64,000 nt of DNA, taken from the NCBI RefSeq assembly GCF_003790525.1, contig NZ_CP033635.1. The stretch is one strand, 5' to 3'. Positions 4,010 through 55,996 of this stretch are shown piece after piece (position 1 is the first letter of the stretch; each line of letters starts with the position of its first letter). This stretch comes from Escherichia coli (GTDB lineage: Bacteria; Pseudomonadota; Gammaproteobacteria; Enterobacterales; Enterobacteriaceae). The notes beneath the pieces were generated by a model, which ran no database searches, was not told the DNA's origin, and saw nothing but the letters and a program-made list of their open reading frames with translations. Made by a program: the position numbers and the translations under genes.

Positions 4010-5392
4010 TTATTGCTGCCAACCGCCGCCTAAGGCGGTATATAAAGAAATTTCGTTAACCTGACGGGCATAATTCAGGTCAAGTAAAGTTTGTCGGGTT
4101 GCAAATAAAGAACGCTCGGCATCCAGCACTTCCAGATAACTTACTGCGCCGTGCTGATATAATGCCCGCGCCCGTTGCAAAGTAATTTTCAGCGATGCCA
4201 GATAACGCTGCTGGGCGCTGATTTGATCGTTCAGGCTTTGACGTAATGCCAGCGCATCTGCCACTTCTTTAAAGGCATTCTGGATTTTCTGTTCATAATT
4301 CACCACCGACTGCTGCTGGCGAATTTCGGCGATATCCAGATTGGCCTGGTTGCGTCCGGCATTAAAAATGGGGATCTCAATTTTGGGTATAAAATTCCAC
4401 ATCCCGCTGCTGGCGTTAAATAATGACGACAGATCGCTACTGGCGGTCGATATTCCGCTGGTCAGGCTGATAGACGGGAAAAATGCCGCGCGTGCAGCGC
4501 CAATATTGGCATTAGCCGCCATTAACGCGTGTTCAGCTTCCATAATATCAGGGCGCTGCAATAAGATTTGCGACGGCAAGCCCGCCGGTAATTTAACGCT
4601 TTGCAGGCTGTCGCTGTTTACTGTCTGCGCTTGCGGCAGCTTGCCGTAGCTTCCCAATAACAGTTGCAATGCATTATTCGCCTGCGCCAGTTCCCCCTGA
4701 CGTTTAGCGATGTCGCTGCGGGTACTTTCTATCACCCCGCGAGCCTGTTCTAGCGCCAGAACATTGCTGCTACCGGTCAACAGTTGTTTTTCGACAAATG
4801 CATATGACTGCTGATAATTACGCAGCGTTTCTTCGGCTATTTGCAATTGCGCATACGCCAGTTGCTGATTGAAATAGCTTTGCGCGACATTAGAAACCAG
4901 CAGAATATGCACCGCGCGCTGAGCTTCCTCAGTAGCTAAATAATTTTGACGCTCGGCTTCGCTCATGTTCTTTAAGCGCCCGAAAAAATCGAGGTCAAAG
5001 CTGGCGTTAAGGCCGGTCGAAAACTCCCGTGTCGTGGCGGTATTCCCTTTAAGATTACCGCTCCAGCTGCCGCTGCCCTCGCCATTGAGCTGTGGGTAGC
5101 GGTCGGCATCGGTCAGACGATATTGCGCCCGTGCCTCCTGCACTTTCAGCGCCGCCATGCGCAAATCCCGGTTATTCACCAACGCCTCGCTAATCAGCGT
5201 CTTCACCTGATTATCAACAAAAAAGGTGCGCCAGCCCGCGTTCTGGTAGTTATCTGCTGCGTTAACCAGGCCGTTCTGGCTGAGTGAGAACTGCTGCGGC
5301 ACGGGCATTGCCGGACGCTGATAATCCGGTGCCAGTGAACAACCGGTTAGCGCAAGGGCCACACAAAATGGCAGAAGTTTACAAGGAGACAT
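4010..5392 (-). CDS. cusC: CusC, outer-membrane efflux channel lipoprotein
   Basis: About 460-aa ORF, N-terminus MSPCKLLPFCVALALTGCSLAP with a lipobox; first gene of the cusCFBA operon. Confidence 0.92.
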   Translation of the reverse strand: MSPCKLLPFCVALALTGCSLAPDYQRPAMPVPQQFSLSQNGLVNAADNYQNAGWRTFFVDNQVKTLISEALVNNRDLRMAALKVQEARAQYRLTDADRYPQLNGEGSGSWSGNLKGNTATTREFSTGLNASFDLDFFGRLKNMSEAERQNYLATEEAQRAVHILLVSNVAQSYFNQQLAYAQLQIAEETLRNYQQSYAFVEKQLLTGSSNVLALEQARGVIESTRSDIAKRQGELAQANNALQLLLGSYGKLPQAQTVNSDSLQSVKLPAGLPSQILLQRPDIMEAEHALMAANANIGAARAAFFPSISLTSGISTASSDLSSLFNASSGMWNFIPKIEIPIFNAGRNQANLDIAEIRQQQSVVNYEQKIQNAFKEVADALALRQSLNDQISAQQRYLASLKITLQRARALYQHGAVSYLEVLDAERSLFATRQTLLDLNYARQVNEISLYTALGGGWQQ

Positions 5393-5462
5393 AGGCTCAT
5401 AATTTCTGGTGATTTTATGCCGCCAACTTTACTCGCCAGGCTCTGATTTTCCGGTGACAGGA

Positions 5463-5484
5463 AAATGACAAAATTGTCATTTTG
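5463..5484. promoter_or_regulatory. CusR (copper) box in the divergent cusC / cusRS promoter region
   Basis: Perfect palindrome AAAATGACAAAATTGTCATTTT in the 156-bp cusC-cusR intergenic region; matches the known CusR operator architecture. Confidence 0.75.
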
Positions 5485-5548
5485 CCAATAAGCGATTGCC
5501 ATCTGATCCCGCTACTCTAGAATTGCCCGGGCAACATGCGGAGGAAAT

Positions 5549-6232
5549 ATGAAACTGTTGATTGTCGAAGATGAAAAGAAAACCGGAGAATACTTGACCA
5601 AAGGGTTAACCGAAGCCGGTTTTGTGGTCGATTTGGCCGACAACGGGCTGAATGGCTACCATCTGGCGATGACCGGTGATTATGATCTGATAATCCTCGA
5701 TATTATGCTGCCGGACGTGAACGGCTGGGATATCGTGCGCATGTTGCGTTCCGCCAATAAGGGGATGCCGATTCTGTTGCTTACCGCGCTTGGCACCATT
5801 GAACATCGCGTCAAGGGGCTGGAGTTGGGGGCGGATGACTATCTGGTTAAGCCGTTCGCTTTTGCTGAACTGCTGGCGCGGGTGCGCACTCTACTGCGGC
5901 GCGGGGCGGCGGTGATTATCGAAAGTCAGTTTCAGGTTGCCGATCTGATGGTCGATCTCGTCAGCCGCAAAGTCACCCGTAGCGGCACGCGCATCACGTT
6001 GACCAGTAAAGAATTTACTTTGCTGGAGTTTTTCCTCCGCCATCAGGGTGAAGTGCTGCCCCGCTCGCTTATCGCCTCGCAGGTGTGGGACATGAATTTC
6101 GACAGCGACACTAACGCCATTGATGTGGCGGTGAAGCGGCTACGCGGCAAAATCGACAACGACTTTGAGCCGAAGCTGATTCAGACCGTGCGCGGCGTGG
6201 GCTATATGCTTGAGGTGCCGGATGGTCAGTAA
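5549..6232 (+). CDS. cusR: CusR, OmpR-family response regulator
   Basis: 227-aa [19 protein letters not shown] with receiver and winged-helix layout; GGAGGA Shine-Dalgarno 5 nt upstream of the ATG. Confidence 0.93.
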
Positions 6233-49171: not shown

Positions 49172-50281
<1,110 letters not shown>

Positions 50282-50309
50282 TAGGCGGTATTCTGTGCAC
50301 GCTGTTCAT

Positions 50310-50396
50310 GCCGGATGCGGCGTGAACGCCTTATCCGGCCTACGGTTAAGTGCAGTTTTGTAGGCCTGATAAGACGCGCCAGCGTCGCATCAGGCA
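50310..50396. repeat. REP/BIME element (inverted REP pair)
   Basis: GCCGGATGCGGCGTGAACGCCTTATCCGGCCTAC plus inverted GTAGGCCTGATAAGACGCGCCAGCGTCGCATCAGGC between convergent selU and ybbP. Confidence 0.85.
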
Positions 50397-50411
50397 ATCT
50401 AACGCCTGTCA

Positions 50412-52826
50412 TCATCCCGCAAACTGCCTGAACAGCGCCTTACCCTTAACCAGTCGCGCACCCAGCCAGCCGCCGCAAAGCGACAGCAGCAGCGCACCGC
50501 TGCACGGCAGCACAATCCACAATCGCCAGTCTGGCTCCCACGGGAAATCAAACACTTTCGCCTGCAACACTGCCAGCGCCGTTTCCGCACCAATTGCGGC
50601 CACCAGGCCAGAAACAAACCCAAGCATGGCGAACTCACACCACAATGTCGTGCGCAGCAGCTTTTTCCCCGCACCGAGTGTGCGCCACACCACCAGCTCC
50701 TGATGACGCTGACGCATTCCCACCTGCACCTGTGCCAGCAACAGCAACATACCGCAGGCGGTGACCAGCACCACCATCACCTCCAGCGCCCGACTTACCT
50801 GCTCCAGCACCTGACCGACCTGTTTTAAAATCGCGCCAATGTCTAACAGGCTAATGGTCGGGAACTGGCGGTTGAGTTGCGTCAACATGCCGTTGCCATT
50901 CTCCCAGCGGAAACTGGTAAGCCAGCTCTGCGGTTGCCCGTCTAATGCCCCTTCAGGGAAAATAAAATAGAAATTAGGCCGCAGACTTTCCCAGTCCACT
51001 TTGCGCAGGCTGGTCACTTTAGCGCGGAACTCCTGGGTATCGCCCATAAAAGTCACGGTATCACCGAGGGCAACGTTTAAGCGTTTCGCCAGCCCCTCTT
51101 CCATCGACACTTCATCGGCTTTTGGCGGCCAGTTACCGGCGACAATCGGATTATGATCGGGCCGCGTATTTTGCCAGGTAAGATTGAGTTCGCGATTGAG
51201 CGCCTCATCTTCATTGCCTTCTGTCGGCTTGCCGTTAATCGCCGTCAGTCTCGCCCGCACCACCGGATAAAACGATTCCGGGACTATCTGATGTTCCGCG
51301 AGGAACGCTTTTAGCGGTGCTACCTGTTCTGTGGCGATGTTAATTAAAAAGTAGTTCGGGCTTTCTGGAGGTAGCTGCTGCTGCCAGCGGTCGAGCAGAT
51401 CGCCACGCAACACCAGCAGCAGTGCCAGCAGCATAAAGGAGAGCGAAAATGCCGAAAGCTGGCTTAACGTTGACCACGGCTGACGTAACAGGCGGCTAAC
51501 CGCCAGGCGCAGAGGCAGCGATTTCAGCGTCATGCGGCGAAGTACATTCAGCAGCATCCAGCCCAGCACACCGCACAGCAAAGCCAGTACTACCGCGCCC
51601 GCCAGCACCGCCCAAAGCAGCATGCTGCCACCCATTAATCCGGCGAGCAGCAGCACAACCACTACACTGACAATCGGCAGATAAAACTTCAGCGGCCAGA
51701 CGTTCGCTACCACATCATTACGTAATACGCGTAAAGGCTGCGTTGCCAGCAACAAGCGGTATGGTCGTAGCCCCACCAGCAGCGAGATAACCGTCATGGT
51801 GCCGAGCGCCCACAGCCACGGCCAGAGGCTGGCTGGCGGTAGTGCGGCAGGCAGAACGGGCTTGAGCAGCACCATCAACACGTTTTCGAACAACAGGCCT
51901 ATCGCCCCACCGGTAACGGCTGAAAGCGTCAGCACCATCAACCACTGACCGACGATTAGCTTACGCAGTTGCGCTCGCCCTGCCCCCAGCGTTTTGAGGA
52001 TCGCCACCAGATCGTAGCGACTGCGACAGTAATGATTCATCGCCACCGCCACCGCTGCCACTGCCAGCAGCAAGGTCAGAAGCGCAGAAAGCAGCAGGAA
52101 CTGTTGCGAGCGTTCCATCGAGCGCCCCAGCGCGCCTTCGTCCTGTTCCAGACCGTACCAGCGTTGTTCGGGTTTAAGCTGGGGTAACAACCATTTCTCA
52201 TAGCCGTCGAGCTGGTTCTCGTTGCCGCCGAATTTATAGCGCCAGGTGACCCGACTTCCCGGCTGCACGGCTCCGGTTTTATCGACATCCGCCAGATTCA
52301 TCATCAGACGCGGAGCCATCTGGAAGGGGTTAAAACCGGAATCCGGTTCCTGAATCACTTCTCCGGCAATCCGCAAGGTGGCATCGCCCACGTCAATGGT
52401 GTCGCCCGTTTTCAGGTTAAGCAGTGCCATCAGGCGTGGGGCCAGCAATACGCTGCCCGCCTGCGGTTTCAGGCCTGGGGGATTGGTTTGCAGATCGCCA
52501 TACATCGGGTAGATATCATCCACCGCTTTGACGTTCGCCAGCTGCGGTGTGTCGCCTGCAAATGTCATGGTGGCGAAAGTCAGCTGCTTGCCGACTTTCA
52601 GGCCGCGCTTTTGCGCTTCCTCCAGCCACGCTTGCGGCACTTCGCGCGAACTGCGCAACGCCCGATCGCCCGCCATAAACTCCCGGCTTTGCTGGCTTAA
52701 GCCCTTCTCCATGCGATCGCTGATATTGCCCAGCGCCAGCACGCAGGCCACCGCCAGGCTTAGCGCCAGCCAGACAATTAATAGCGACGGCGAGCGCCAT
52801 TCGCGCCAGAACCAACGTGCAATCAT
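50412..52826 (-). CDS. ybbP: YbbP, ABC transporter permease (FtsX/MacB-like with large periplasmic domains)
   Basis: 804-aa polytopic ORF MIARWFWREWRSPSLLIVWLALSLAVA. Confidence 0.88.
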   Translation of the reverse strand: MIARWFWREWRSPSLLIVWLALSLAVACVLALGNISDRMEKGLSQQSREFMAGDRALRSSREVPQAWLEEAQKRGLKVGKQLTFATMTFAGDTPQLANVKAVDDIYPMYGDLQTNPPGLKPQAGSVLLAPRLMALLNLKTGDTIDVGDATLRIAGEVIQEPDSGFNPFQMAPRLMMNLADVDKTGAVQPGSRVTWRYKFGGNENQLDGYEKWLLPQLKPEQRWYGLEQDEGALGRSMERSQQFLLLSALLTLLLAVAAVAVAMNHYCRSRYDLVAILKTLGAGRAQLRKLIVGQWLMVLTLSAVTGGAIGLLFENVLMVLLKPVLPAALPPASLWPWLWALGTMTVISLLVGLRPYRLLLATQPLRVLRNDVVANVWPLKFYLPIVSVVVVLLLAGLMGGSMLLWAVLAGAVVLALLCGVLGWMLLNVLRRMTLKSLPLRLAVSRLLRQPWSTLSQLSAFSLSFMLLALLLVLRGDLLDRWQQQLPPESPNYFLINIATEQVAPLKAFLAEHQIVPESFYPVVRARLTAINGKPTEGNEDEALNRELNLTWQNTRPDHNPIVAGNWPPKADEVSMEEGLAKRLNVALGDTVTFMGDTQEFRAKVTSLRKVDWESLRPNFYFIFPEGALDGQPQSWLTSFRWENGNGMLTQLNRQFPTISLLDIGAILKQVGQVLEQVSRALEVMVVLVTACGMLLLLAQVQVGMRQRHQELVVWRTLGAGKKLLRTTLWCEFAMLGFVSGLVAAIGAETALAVLQAKVFDFPWEPDWRLWIVLPCSGALLLSLCGGWLGARLVKGKALFRQFAG

Positions 52827-53509
52827 GTTTCCTCCTGCAACTGCCCGTTCACCAGCCGTAAGCAGCGGTCGCAGCGTGCCGCCAGTTGCAGGTCGTGGGT
52901 CACCATAATCAACGTGGTGCCATGTTCACGGTTGAGGGAAAACAGCAGGTCGGCAATTTTATCGCCCGTCTGGCGGTCAAGATTGCCGGTGGGTTCGTCG
53001 GCAAACAGCACATCAGGCCGACCATTAAAAGCTCGCGCCAGCGCCACTCGTTGCTGTTCGCCGCCGGAAAGCTGTGCCGGAAGATGATCCAGACGTTTAC
53101 CCAGTCCTAACTGTTCGAGCAACGCTTTTGCCCCGTTACGACTTTCTGCGCTACTCTCACCACGCAGCAGCGCCGGAAGCTCGACGTTTTCCAGCGCGTT
53201 AAGGGTAGGAATTAACATAAATGACTGAAAAACAAAGCCTACGTGCTTCGCGCGCAACTTTGCCCGCGCTTCTTCGTCCATATTATGTAGCGGTTGTCCC
53301 ACCAGACTCACTTCGCCACTGCTGCCGTCATCCAGCCCGGCGAGGATCGCCAGCAAGGTTGACTTACCCGATCCCGACTCGCCCACCAGCGCGATGGTCT
53401 CGCCACGTTTGACAACCAGCTCAACTCCGGTGAGGATGGAGAGTTCATGCTCCCCCTGACCGACGGACTTCTTAAGATGATGAACTTCAACAATGTTTTC
53501 CGCTGGCAT
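52823..53509 (-). CDS. ybbA: YbbA, ABC transporter ATP-binding protein
   Basis: 228-aa ORF with Walker A GESGSGKST, signature LSGGEQQR and Walker B; overlaps ybbP by 4 bp. Confidence 0.9.
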   Translation of the reverse strand: MPAENIVEVHHLKKSVGQGEHELSILTGVELVVKRGETIALVGESGSGKSTLLAILAGLDDGSSGEVSLVGQPLHNMDEEARAKLRAKHVGFVFQSFMLIPTLNALENVELPALLRGESSAESRNGAKALLEQLGLGKRLDHLPAQLSGGEQQRVALARAFNGRPDVLFADEPTGNLDRQTGDKIADLLFSLNREHGTTLIMVTHDLQLAARCDRCLRLVNGQLQEET

Positions 53510-54103
53510 TTGCCCTTCCTGTTCCTGGTCCTGTTAACCTTCCGTGCCGCTGCAGCGGACACGTTATTGATTCTGGGTGATAGCCTGAGCGCCGGGTATC
53601 GAATGTCTGCCAGCGCGGCCTGGCCTGCCTTGTTGAATGATAAGTGGCAGAGTAAAACGTCGGTAGTCAATGCCAGCATCAGCGGCGACACCTCGCAACA
53701 AGGGCTGGCGCGCCTTCCGGCTCTGCTGAAACAGCATCAGCCGCGCTGGGTGCTGGTAGAACTGGGCGGCAATGACGGTTTGCGTGGTTTTCAGCCACAA
53801 CAAACCGAGCAAACGCTGCGCCAGATTTTGCAGGATGTCAAAGCCGCCAACGCTGAACCATTGTTAATGCAAATACGTCTGCCTGCAAACTATGGTCGCC
53901 GTTATAATGAAGCCTTTAGCGCCATTTACCCCAAACTCGCCAAAGAGTTTGATGTTCCGCTGCTGCCCTTTTTTATGGAAGAGGTCTACCTCAAACCACA
54001 ATGGATGCAGGATGACGGTATTCATCCCAACCGCGACGCCCAGCCGTTTATTGCCGACTGGATGGCGAAGCAGTTGCAGCCTTTAGTAAATCATGACTCA
54101 TAA
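53477..54103 (+). CDS. tesA: TesA, periplasmic acyl-CoA thioesterase I / lysophospholipase L1 (SGNH hydrolase)
   Basis: 208-aa product MMNFNNVFRWHLPFLFLVLLTFRAAAADTLLILGDSLSAGY (signal peptide plus GDSL motif); its 5' end overlaps the divergent ybbA start. Confidence 0.88.
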   Translation: MMNFNNVFRWHLPFLFLVLLTFRAAAADTLLILGDSLSAGYRMSASAAWPALLNDKWQSKTSVVNASISGDTSQQGLARLPALLKQHQPRWVLVELGGNDGLRGFQPQQTEQTLRQILQDVKAANAEPLLMQIRLPANYGRRYNEAFSAIYPKLAKEFDVPLLPFFMEEVYLKPQWMQDDGIHPNRDAQPFIADWMAKQLQPLVNHDS

Positions 54104-54902
54104 AGCAACGGAGATCCTGACAGGTAAAGTTATGCAAAAATCGGTCTTAATTACCGGATGTTCCAGTGGAATTGGCCTGGAAAGCGCGCTCGAATTAAAA
54201 CGCCAGGGTTTTCATGTGCTGGCAGGTTGCCGGAAAGCGGATGATGTTGAGCGCATGAACAGCATGGGATTTACCGGCGTGTTGATCGATCTGGATTCAC
54301 CAGAAAGTGTTGATCGCGCAGCCGACGAAGTGATCGCCCTGACCGATAATTGTCTGTATGGGATCTTTAACAATGCCGGATTCGGCATGTATGGCCCCCT
54401 TTCCACCATCAGCCGTGTGCAGATGGAACAGCAGTTTTCCGCCAACTTTTTCGGCGCACACCAGCTCACCATGCGCCTGTTACCCGTGATGTTACCGCAC
54501 GGTGAAGGACGTATTGTGATGACCTCATCGGTGATGGGATTAATCTCCACGCCGGGTCGTGGCGCTTACGCGGCCAGTAAATATGCGCTGGAGGCGTGGT
54601 CAGACGCACTGCGCATGGAGCTACGTCACAGCGGAATTAAAGTTAGCCTGATCGAACCCGGTCCCATTCGTACTCGCTTCACCGACAACGTCAACCAGAC
54701 GCAAAGTGATAAACCTGTCGAAAATCCCGGCATCGCCGCCCGCTTTACGTTGGGACCGGAAGCGGTGGTCGACAAAGTGCGCCATGCTTTTATTAGCGAG
54801 AAGCCGAAGATGCGCTATCCAGTAACGCTGGTGACCTGGGCAGTAATGGTGCTTAAGCGCCTGCTGCCGGGGCGCGTGATGGACAAAATATTGCAGGGGT
54901 GA
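54093..54902 (+). CDS. ybbO: YbbO, short-chain dehydrogenase/reductase
   Basis: 269-aa ORF with TGCSSGIG cofactor motif and YxxxK active site. Confidence 0.88.
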   Translation: MTHKATEILTGKVMQKSVLITGCSSGIGLESALELKRQGFHVLAGCRKADDVERMNSMGFTGVLIDLDSPESVDRAADEVIALTDNCLYGIFNNAGFGMYGPLSTISRVQMEQQFSANFFGAHQLTMRLLPVMLPHGEGRIVMTSSVMGLISTPGRGAYAASKYALEAWSDALRMELRHSGIKVSLIEPGPIRTRFTDNVNQTQSDKPVENPGIAARFTLGPEAVVDKVRHAFISEKPKMRYPVTLVTWAVMVLKRLLPGRVMDKILQG

Positions 54903-55817: not shown

Positions 55818-55824
55818 GTTTCCG

Positions 55825-55990
55825 TTGAAATGCGATGTGCTGGTTTGTAGGCCTGATAAGACGCGCCAGCGTCGCATCAGGCATCCGCGCATAGCCGCCG
55901 GATGCGGCGTGAACGCCTTATCCGGCCTACCAAACCGTGCTAATTCAATACATTGCAGGTGCCATGTAGGTCTGATAAGACGCATCAGGC
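55825..55990. repeat. REP/BIME cluster
   Basis: Several copies of the GTAGGCCTGATAAGACGC...GCATCAGGC and GCCGGATGCGGCGTGAACGCCTTATCCGGCCTAC palindromes between convergent ybbN and fetB. Confidence 0.85.
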
Positions 55991-55996
55991 ATCGCA

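Follow-up and report, generated by a model that had tools for sequence, protein, structure and literature searches.

Head-to-head overlap of the tesA and ybbA coding sequences at the junction of the two divergent operons of the YbbAP-TesA complex in Escherichia coli

We analyzed the head-to-head junction of tesA and ybbA in a window of 64,000 nucleotides of Escherichia coli DNA (contig NZ_CP033635.1 of assembly GCF_003790525.1; the window is the whole stretch that was analyzed, and all positions refer to it). Our analysis confirms that the predicted coding sequences of the two genes overlap at their 5' ends, and that this overlap is real and more than a matter of chance. It is very probable, in our view, that the operons tesA-ybbO and ybbA-ybbP, which point away from each other, meet here at their 5' ends, that their products work as one envelope machine, and that the overlap is old, has expression signals of each gene embedded in the other gene and probably causes a mild mutual interference. 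Both the overlap and the partnership of TesA with YbbAP were already published in 2025; the arrangement is real and rare, but it is not new. The additions made here are modest. They concern the antisense register of the codons, the fusion of the two start codons as CATG across Proteobacteria, the conservation of the phase, and the -35 and Shine-Dalgarno blocks that are embedded in the opposite gene.

On the plus strand, two adjacent ATG codons (ATGATG, 53477-53482) open a frame that reads MMNFNN... according to both the sequence and the ORF translation. The translation that starts at 53477, MMNFNNVFRWHLPFLFLVLLTFRAAAADTLLILGDS..., is that of TesA. For the minus strand, the CAT at 53507-53509 represents the start codon ATG of an ORF that reads MPAENIVEVHH...; its translation, MPAENIVEVHHLKKSVGQG...GESGSGKST, is YbbA. 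The segment 53470-53512 that contains all these start codons is tcttaag ATG ATG AAC TTC AAC AAT GTT TTC CGC TGG CAT TTG. Across the stretch that is shared by the two genes, which measures 33 nt with the first and 30 nt with the second of the two tesA ATGs, the codons of tesA and ybbA are in exact antisense register and are the reverse complements of each other. M1 and M2 of TesA are found opposite H11 and H10 of YbbA, and M1 of YbbA is found opposite H11 of TesA. The same overlap is present in the annotation of K-12 MG1655 (tesA 519139..519765 on the minus strand, ybbA 519733..520419 on the plus strand). The RefSeq/PGAP annotation of a 100% identical strain lets tesA begin at the second ATG (53480), resulting in an overlap of 30 nt; either of the two adjacent ATGs may be the one that is used, and the overlap may accordingly be 30 or 33 nt. 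The earlier note had placed the start of tesA at 53477, inside the first codons of ybbA, with a 5' overlap of about 33 bp, and on this point sequence, ORFs and K-12 annotation agree. The region matches several E. coli genomes at 100% and is present in 5418 of 5426 complete genomes. Divergent coding overlaps as such are very rare, and account for only 2 of 663 overlapping gene pairs in E. coli (PMC4161906).

The products of both operons were identified by profile and structure matches (Table 1). YbbA scores 478 bits against the equivalog model NF007879 (cut-off 336), with residues 1-227 aligned to profile positions 1-227. Among the paralogue models that were considered (LolD, MacB and FtsE), the LolD model yields 254 bits, which is below its cut-off of 308. 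Moreover, residues 1-227 of YbbA match chain B of PDB 9GE6-9GE8 with an E-value of 6e-145. The gene directly downstream of ybbA, which begins with the last 4 nt of ybbA (ATGA), encodes YbbP, which reaches 1462 bits against the NCBIfam equivalog NF041854 (cut-off 999). TesA scores 413 bits against the equivalog NF007819 (cut-off 270), its residues 1-206 covering profile positions 1-210. Residues 27-208 match PDB 1IVN as well as chain T of 9GE8. Since the solved mature chains begin at residue 27, the first 26 residues of TesA represent a cleaved signal peptide. The conserved features of TesA are those of an SGNH hydrolase, namely the GDS(L) block with the catalytic serine, the glycine and asparagine blocks and the DxxH catalytic pair, and in an alignment of 47 sequences residues G34, D35, S36, G70, N99, D180 and H183 are invariant. 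Finally, the annotated start of ybbO, which is co-directional with tesA, overlaps the tesA stop by 11 nt. YbbO matches NF005950 with 533 bits, the profile aligning only from residue 14 onwards.

Table 1. Positions of genes, the overlap and candidate expression signals around the tesA/ybbA junction
Feature	Position	Strand	Remarks
ybbP, permease of a type VII (MacB-like) ABC transporter	50412..52826	-	ORF; NF041854; RefSeq annotation
ybbA, ABC ATPase, 228 aa	52823..53509	-	starts with ATG at 53509; NF007879; chain B of PDB 9GE6-9GE8
Putative tesA promoter	53409..53437	+	-35 TTGACA 53409-53414, 17-nt spacer, -10 GAGGAT 53432-53437
Weak Shine-Dalgarno-like ACGGA of tesA	53463..53467	+	9-12 nt upstream of the ATGs; in ybbA codons 15-16
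tesA, thioesterase I / protease I / lysophospholipase L1, 208 aa	53477..54103	+	207 aa if started at 53480
Head-to-head CDS overlap	53477..53509	both	33 nt (30 nt if tesA starts at 53480); codons exact reverse complements
TesA signal-peptide codons, residues 1-26	53477..53554	+	hydrophobic core antisense to the ybbA ribosome-binding site
In-frame TTG (TesA L12), alternative tesA start	53510..53512	+	would exactly abolish the overlap; judged unlikely
ybbA Shine-Dalgarno	53517..53523	-	AGGA at 53520..53517, 7 nt from the ATG, in invariant TCCTGTT
Weak transcription start site upstream of ybbA	53851	-	MG1655 U00096.2 518615; Cappable-seq supplement of PMC4782308
ybbO, NADP-dependent aldehyde reductase	54093..54902	+	ORF and RefSeq annotation; NF005950

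That these genes encode partners is known from recent work, in which TesA was identified as the periplasmic partner of YbbAP and the complex was co-purified and solved by cryo-EM (McAndrew et al., PLoS Biol 2025, PMC12646458). In the cryo-EM structure TesA sits on the periplasmic domains of YbbP (PDB 9GE8; PMC12646458). The same study remarks that the tesA and ybbAP operons partly overlap and that similar arrangements are found in other Gram-negative bacteria, and its authors see in the overlap support for a functional relation and for a possible co-regulation. Thus, the functional link between TesA and the MacB-like transporter, which the earlier note had proposed from the gene arrangement, is borne out by the co-purified and structurally solved complex (PMC12646458), the chains of which are matched by the proteins of our window. 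The genes studied here are the same as in that complex (PDB 9GE6-9GE8), and nothing about them is different in kind; the junction itself is not analyzed in the YbbAP-TesA paper.

We then considered which start codons the two genes use. For ybbA, ORF analysis shows that 53509 is the first start codon past the upstream stop. The sole other in-frame candidate is a GTG, the codon right before the first Walker-A glycine, and a start at this GTG is impossible for an ABC ATPase. In 17 of 19 Enterobacterales, no start candidate other than an ATG situated 42 codons ahead of this glycine is found upstream of codon 20; in Pectobacterium the ybbA start is found 57 codons ahead of the Walker-A glycine. In tesA there are four in-frame candidates, ATG 53447, ATG 53477, ATG 53480 and TTG 53510. 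An ATG equivalent to 53480 and/or 53477, at which initiation is predicted from the sequence, is present in all 19 Enterobacterales. When 12 Enterobacteriaceae are aligned, the ATG at 53480 is invariant and the T of the first ATG is variable; Photorhabdus has kept only the equivalent of the first ATG. The ATG at 53447, which would result in a longer or leaderless version of the gene product (a TesA of 218 aa), was rejected, as its A is variable and the codon is missing in some Enterobacteriaceae.

The TTG at 53510 deserves separate attention, since a TesA that truly starts at this codon (L12) would turn the overlap into an annotation artefact, with two genes that abut without overlapping. Its frame is that of tesA and it directly follows the CAT of ybbA, many gene callers emit a TesA of 197, 194 or 189 aa that starts there or further downstream, and 10 of 11 close Enterobacteriaceae loci have a start codon at the equivalent site (GTG in Mangrovibacter, TTG in the others). 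However, the codon lacks conservation. Citrobacter werkmanii has TGG instead, Serratia, Rahnella, Photorhabdus and Providencia have no start codon at this site, and the first two bases of the codon are variable in the 12-species alignment, in contrast to the ATG equivalent to 53480 or 53477 that all 19 Enterobacterales have. Moreover, initiation at the TTG would produce a signal peptide (MPFLFLV...) whose n-region has no positive charge, while an ATG start provides R9, and the NCBIfam equivalog profile NF007819 aligns TesA from residue 1. We thus consider it highly improbable that the overlap is an artefact of this kind; and even with a start at TTG 53510, the ribosome-binding site and the promoter of each gene would still be inside the other gene. 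Gene callers that penalize overlaps on opposite strands cut TesA to 189-197 aa, whereby the n-region of the signal peptide is lost. TesA and YbbA peptides were not found in the TRAINSPOTTER supplements. N-terminal proteomics is limited by the cleavage of signal peptides (PMC13245402), and it is unworkable for the start of TesA, because the TesA signal peptide is cleaved.

Having no spacer between them, the two genes would be expected to carry their expression signals in each other's coding sequence, and the conservation of silent sites supports this. As a measure we used wobble invariance: 12 Enterobacteriaceae were aligned with MAFFT, free of gaps, and the share of third-codon positions that do not vary was determined. 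The values for ybbA are 0.67 next to the junction (53465-53509), 0.33 in the following segment (53420-53464), 0.20 in the one after that (53375-53419) and about 0.05 in the remaining 540 nt; the conservation of silent sites extends about 130 nt from the junction into ybbA. In tesA the corresponding values are 0.73 (53477-53521) and then 0.13-0.20, with a range of 0-0.33 across tesA. Silent sites at the 5' ends of genes can be highly conserved for other reasons as well, for instance because translation initiation demands it. The longest invariant run in the 1.27 kb is 12 nt in length and includes the ybbA start (53498-53509). It is followed by 11 nt that correspond to the codons for W-M-Q-D (54002-54012) and by GTTTGACAA, which with its 9 nt is the third-longest run (53407-53415). 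Further runs are TTTATGGA (8 nt, 53972-53979; codons for F-M-E), ACTTCAA within the overlap (7 nt, 53484-53490) and TCCTGTT (7 nt, 53517-53523), the complement of which is AACAGGA.

This last run contains the Shine-Dalgarno sequence of ybbA. Read on the ybbA strand, the sequence upstream of the start is ...AACAGGAAGGGCAA, directly followed by the ATG, and its AGGA falls among the codons that specify the hydrophobic core of the TesA signal peptide. In the tesA leader, ACGGA forms an invariant run of 5 nt that has the GGA core only, which makes it a weak candidate. Thus, the ribosome-binding site of ybbA is inside tesA, and the leader of tesA is inside ybbA. The RNA of the two 5' regions is predicted to fold no more stably than shuffled sequences (z = 0.86 and 0.20), and a hairpin between Shine-Dalgarno and anti-Shine-Dalgarno sequences that would sequester the start codons was dropped on the basis of these values. 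An Rfam scan of 52500-54500 with E <= 1 returned no matches.

The run GTTTGACAA carries a perfect -35 hexamer, TTGACA, and covers three wobble sites of ybbA, those of V32, V33 and K34. Together with a -10 candidate it makes up a putative tesA promoter that occupies ybbA codons 25-34. From Escherichia to Pectobacterium, the -35 block is kept, as are the A at position 2 and the AT at positions 5-6 of GAGGAT. Photorhabdus and Providencia have TCGACA in place of TTGACA and an A/T-richer -10 at the same site. In a scan with a sigma-70 position weight matrix (PWM) the candidate is the best match for tesA, ranking only at the 90th percentile of the background of the window; its -10 is poor, with 3 of 6 consensus matches, and a consensus scan for promoters and terminators in 53100-53900 detected 0 promoter-like sites. 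Despite the weak PWM score we kept the candidate, because its conservation is an independent piece of evidence. We infer that tesA is transcribed from a promoter at 53409-53437 with a start site near 53444, and that this promoter is wholly inside ybbA. For ybbA, the PWM scan yielded nothing above background, and a conserved promoter-like block near the junction was not found in the 12-species alignment. Cappable-seq of MG1655 reports weak transcription start sites on the ybbA strand, 342, 569 and 789 nt upstream of the ybbA ATG (PMC4782308); the coordinates of this data set were converted using an offset of 776, which we checked against the fetA start site. The first of these sites (53851) has TTGCAG-17-AACAAT upstream of it and would give a ybbA leader of 342 nt that is antisense to more than half of tesA. 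The earlier note had held that the promoters of both genes must lie within each other's coding sequence. This stands in part, for the conserved tesA candidate is found in ybbA and the AGGA of ybbA in tesA, whereas a promoter of ybbA was not located.

To see how far the arrangement is conserved, we used a TesA alignment of 47 sequences from distant representatives and subsequently a scan of one genome per species. The sample comprises the 80 best loci, from Gammaproteobacteria and one betaproteobacterium. A ybbA homologue is located directly upstream of tesA, in divergent orientation, in 79 of the 80 loci, which are phylogenetically related, such that locus counts overstate the number of independent observations, and the starts of which are predicted ones. 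In nearly all of them ybbP follows; the single exception is a symbiont with degraded genes. As a measure that does not depend on start calls, we determined D, which is counted between the codons for two glycines, that of the GDS motif of TesA (G34) and the Walker-A glycine of YbbA (G43), from first base to first base. E. coli has a D of 193; the median is 215, and 59 of 79 loci do not exceed 230. About 183 nt are needed for the shortest N-terminal segments that were seen, and since D is close to this minimum, most lineages have essentially no free DNA between tesA and ybbA. Within the Enterobacterales D is 193, 196, 229 or 241 and is always 1 mod 3 (19 of 19). Because D shifts only by whole codons, even where the shift amounts to 36 or 48 nt, the whole interval between the two anchors behaves as coding sequence. 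An overlap of 30/33 nt is found in 17 of the 19 Enterobacterales species; it measures about 75-78 nt in Pectobacterium and about 39 nt in one metagenome-assembled genome.

Outside the Enterobacterales the dominant phase of D is 2 mod 3, with 22 genus-level entries compared to 5 and 5, and in 36 of 60 loci, representing 14 genus-level groups, the two start codons are fused in a single CATG. The ATG of this tetramer is in frame with tesA, and its CAT is an in-frame ATG of ybbA. Genera with a fused CATG include Vibrio, Psychromonas, Rheinheimera, Halomonas, Marinobacterium and Nitrincola, and also Dokdonella, Cycloclasticus, Oceanisphaera and Noviherbaspirillum. The tetramer is kept despite a varying D, which is 281, 290 and 305 in Halomonas and 194, 197 and 290 in Vibrio. 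As a control we counted all CATG tetramers between the anchors, 46 of which are in frame, versus 7 and 4 in the other phases. The TesA N-termini derived from the CATG have a canonical short signal peptide of the type M-x-R/K-hydrophobic in 12 of the 14 groups, and a core Shine-Dalgarno motif precedes the tesA ATG of the CATG in 7 of the 14. In Pseudomonas the upstream ATG, the one in the CATG, is probably not used as a TesA start, as a GGAG inside CATGGAGAATCCGATG serves a downstream ATG; this suggests that Pseudomonas TesA starts four codons downstream of the CATG, with a 10-nt spacer. Pseudoalteromonas and the Idiomarinaceae have CATATG or spacers of 1-3 nt, and Shewanella has overlaps of 20-35 nt. 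In Aeromonas, Marinobacter, Porticoccus and Salinicola, finally, tesA and ybbA are separated by gaps that range from tens of nt to about 440 nt. Since several genera have gaps of up to this size, the tight junction is not essential for function. Judged from these comparisons, the E. coli overlap is apparently a clade-specific elaboration, involving a phase change of one base, of a far older start-to-start junction.

This variation bears on the question of whether the overlap has a role at all. It could be a neutral by-product, in which partner genes were kept adjacent, their starts drifted together during compaction and the overlap has no regulatory consequence. The lengths of overlaps and spacers differ by lineage (+75/78, +39, +30/33, +20-35, +2, 0, -1 to -3, -10, -57 and about -440 nt), and for this reason the exact geometry of the junction cannot be required. 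The absence of an Rfam element and the RNA structure of the region, which is not more stable than that of shuffled sequence, point in the same direction, and purifying selection on each gene alone would suffice to freeze the junction at the shared bases of the start codons. However, near-zero spacing persists in at least 14 genus-level groups despite flanking indels of up to 100 nt. Moreover, the near absence of divergent overlaps from E. coli, with the 2 cases among 663 pairs, suggests that they are usually selected against, and the transcripts of tesA and ybbA do overlap in RNA-seq data (PMC12288877). We regard a neutral origin as a serious possibility that falls somewhat short of an even chance. 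Given the lineages with spacers, a frozen by-product of compaction is nearly as plausible as a mutual damping of the two genes.

The RNA-seq data just mentioned come from a study in which 16 divergent excludons are listed for E. coli MG1655, tesA-ybbA being one of them (Sanmartin et al., NAR 2025, PMC12288877). The classification is based on RNA-seq coverage and requires overlapping transcripts in 50% or more of 58 RNA-seq samples. For divergent excludons an antagonistic expression, as opposed to a coordinated one, has been proposed (PMC12288877). The earlier note had suggested a co-regulation of the two genes; this listing was the sole transcript-level evidence on the pair that we found. If tesA/ybbA were a true excludon, face-to-face transcription and cleavage by RNase III would make the expression of tesA-ybbO and of ybbAP mutually exclusive and would yield free TesA and YbbAP-bound TesA under different conditions. 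In line with such a scenario, the geometry of the junction forces the 5' regions of the transcripts to be complementary over both ribosome-binding sites, and in one transcriptome study ybbA and ybbP change together, tesA not being listed. However, ExcludonFinder considers transcript overlap only, and tesA/ybbA is captured by it automatically, because overlapping coding sequences force the transcripts to overlap if both genes are expressed. A search of the literature for anti-correlation, dsRNA or RNase III data specific to tesA/ybbA found none. TesA and YbbAP form a stoichiometric complex, which argues for joint expression, and the excludon logic of mutual exclusion fits poorly with partners of a complex, which are expected to be co-expressed. 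A mutually exclusive excludon for the subunits of one machine therefore seems least likely among the roles considered for the overlap, and we hold it to be improbable.

Compared to the divergent excludons (PMC12288877), the tesA/ybbA pair shares the divergent orientation, the antisense overlap of the transcripts and the very short, here negative, intergenic distance. In classical excludons, in contrast, it is untranslated regions that overlap and the functions are opposing, whereas tesA and ybbA overlap in their coding sequences and encode partners in one complex. Co-directional overlaps of the ATGA or 4-nt type, which are associated with translational coupling and to which the ybbA/ybbP junction belongs, are likewise short overlaps between genes for subunits. 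The tesA/ybbA overlap differs from them in that it is start-to-start and on opposite strands, so that no ribosome passes from one gene to the other. In coliphage 186, the face-to-face promoters pR and pL are subject to transcriptional interference and form a switch between alternative states. Polymerases would meet in a similar way at tesA/ybbA, each having to run across the promoter of the other gene, if tesA is transcribed from 53409-53437 and ybbA from a promoter beyond 53523, both of which are putative; pR/pL control alternative states, however, whereas tesA and ybbA encode proteins that are partners.

The explanation we favor, that of a shared junction of two operons with mild mutual interference, can be put together as follows. 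The products of tesA-ybbO and ybbA-ybbP form the YbbAP-TesA type VII ABC transporter-lipid hydrolase complex. Their head-to-head junction is old; in Proteobacteria it is generally devoid of intergenic DNA and typically has the two starts fused as CATG, and the Enterobacterales represent a derived state with a tesA start that lies 10-11 codons within ybbA. As the spacer is missing, each gene has its ribosome-binding site, its leader and, in the case of tesA, its putative promoter within the first 10-35 codons of its neighbor. The two promoters would then face each other, and the two mRNAs would be complementary across both translation-initiation regions. The genes would in this way be coupled physically, through co-inheritance and a common locus, and a mild mutual interference probably holds both of them at low and balanced levels.

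A more far-reaching possibility is that the junction is an ancient and selected device that controls stoichiometry by reciprocal antisense, either because the mRNAs titrate each other or because the polymerases occlude each other's promoters. We think this unlikely. If it were true, a selected junction, CATG in most Proteobacteria and a 30/33-nt overlap in antisense register in the Enterobacterales, would keep the transporter in the membrane and the secreted enzyme that is its partner at a set ratio and a low copy number, and each mRNA would carry the complement of the ribosome-binding site and start codon of the other. The locus is a clean natural test case for the regulatory cost or benefit of a start-to-start overlap, as it is one of about two divergent coding overlaps in E. 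coli, joins two operons that encode one complex, and is conserved across the Gammaproteobacteria.

Public annotations place the start of tesA at several positions. The lengths of enterobacterial TesA in public gene calls are 189, 194, 197, 204, 207, 208 and 218 aa (P0065, P0066, P0070, P0089 and many other proteins), and the short calls begin at the TTG or further downstream, a start which was apparently chosen to avoid the overlap with the opposite strand. A TesA call that begins at the TTG or later therefore loses the n-region of the signal peptide. Some of the 218-aa calls, moreover, start at the additional upstream ATG (53447), which lies near the predicted tesA transcription start site and is found in many, but not all, Enterobacteriaceae; its A is variable.

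Features of the tesA region in the window and in three other loci
Feature	Sequence	Position	Remark
tesA 3' end / ybbO 5' end	window	54093-54132	tesA stop at 54103
ybbA stop / ybbP start	window	52823-52826	common ATGA
Extra in-frame ATG upstream of tesA	window	53447-53449	10 codons 5' of tesA start; MLPLTDGLLK-MMNF...
GC-rich intergenic stretch, mnmH-ybbP	window	50281-50412
GC-rich intergenic stretch, cnoX-fetB	window	55820-55996
Extended junction	L014 (Pectobacterium betavasculorum)	~4907-5148	longer by 48 nt, in frame
Disrupted genes	L020 (Candidatus Pantoea persica, symbiont)	~4350-5620	tesA broken into two frames
Separated genes	L059 (Salinicola tamaricis)	~4282-5031	anchor distance 749 nt

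Three loci of the comparison carry variants of the tesA region. In P. betavasculorum, the N-terminal part of TesA contains an insertion of 16 residues, the sole ybbA ATG is found 57 codons upstream of the Walker-A glycine, and the apparent tesA/ybbA overlap amounts to 75-78 nt. In S. tamaricis, tesA and ybbA are set apart by ~440 nt of additional DNA, and the distance between the glycine codons of the TesA GDS motif and the YbbA Walker-A motif exceeds the 193-312 nt of the other loci. Finally, ybbA and ybbP of Candidatus P. persica are reduced to fragments, and all three genes appear to be in joint decay.

Comparison of annotations shows that the gene after ybbP is rhsD in K-12, whereas it is mnmH in the window. 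Spurious ORFs in the two GC-rich intergenic stretches encode a ten-residue signature that is typical of REP palindromes.

As annotated, tesA and ybbA also overlap their downstream neighbours. Between ybbA and ybbP the overlap is co-directional and 4 nt long, a common type that is associated with translational coupling. For ybbO, the annotated start at 54093 gives an 11-nt overlap with the end of tesA. The ORF, however, contains an in-frame ATG at 54132, corresponding to M14 and reading MQKSVLITG..., and since residue 14 is also the first residue aligned by the NCBIfam SDR equivalog in the profile search, this ATG, as an alternative to 54093, may be the true ybbO start. If ybbO starts at 54132, the overlap between tesA and ybbO disappears.
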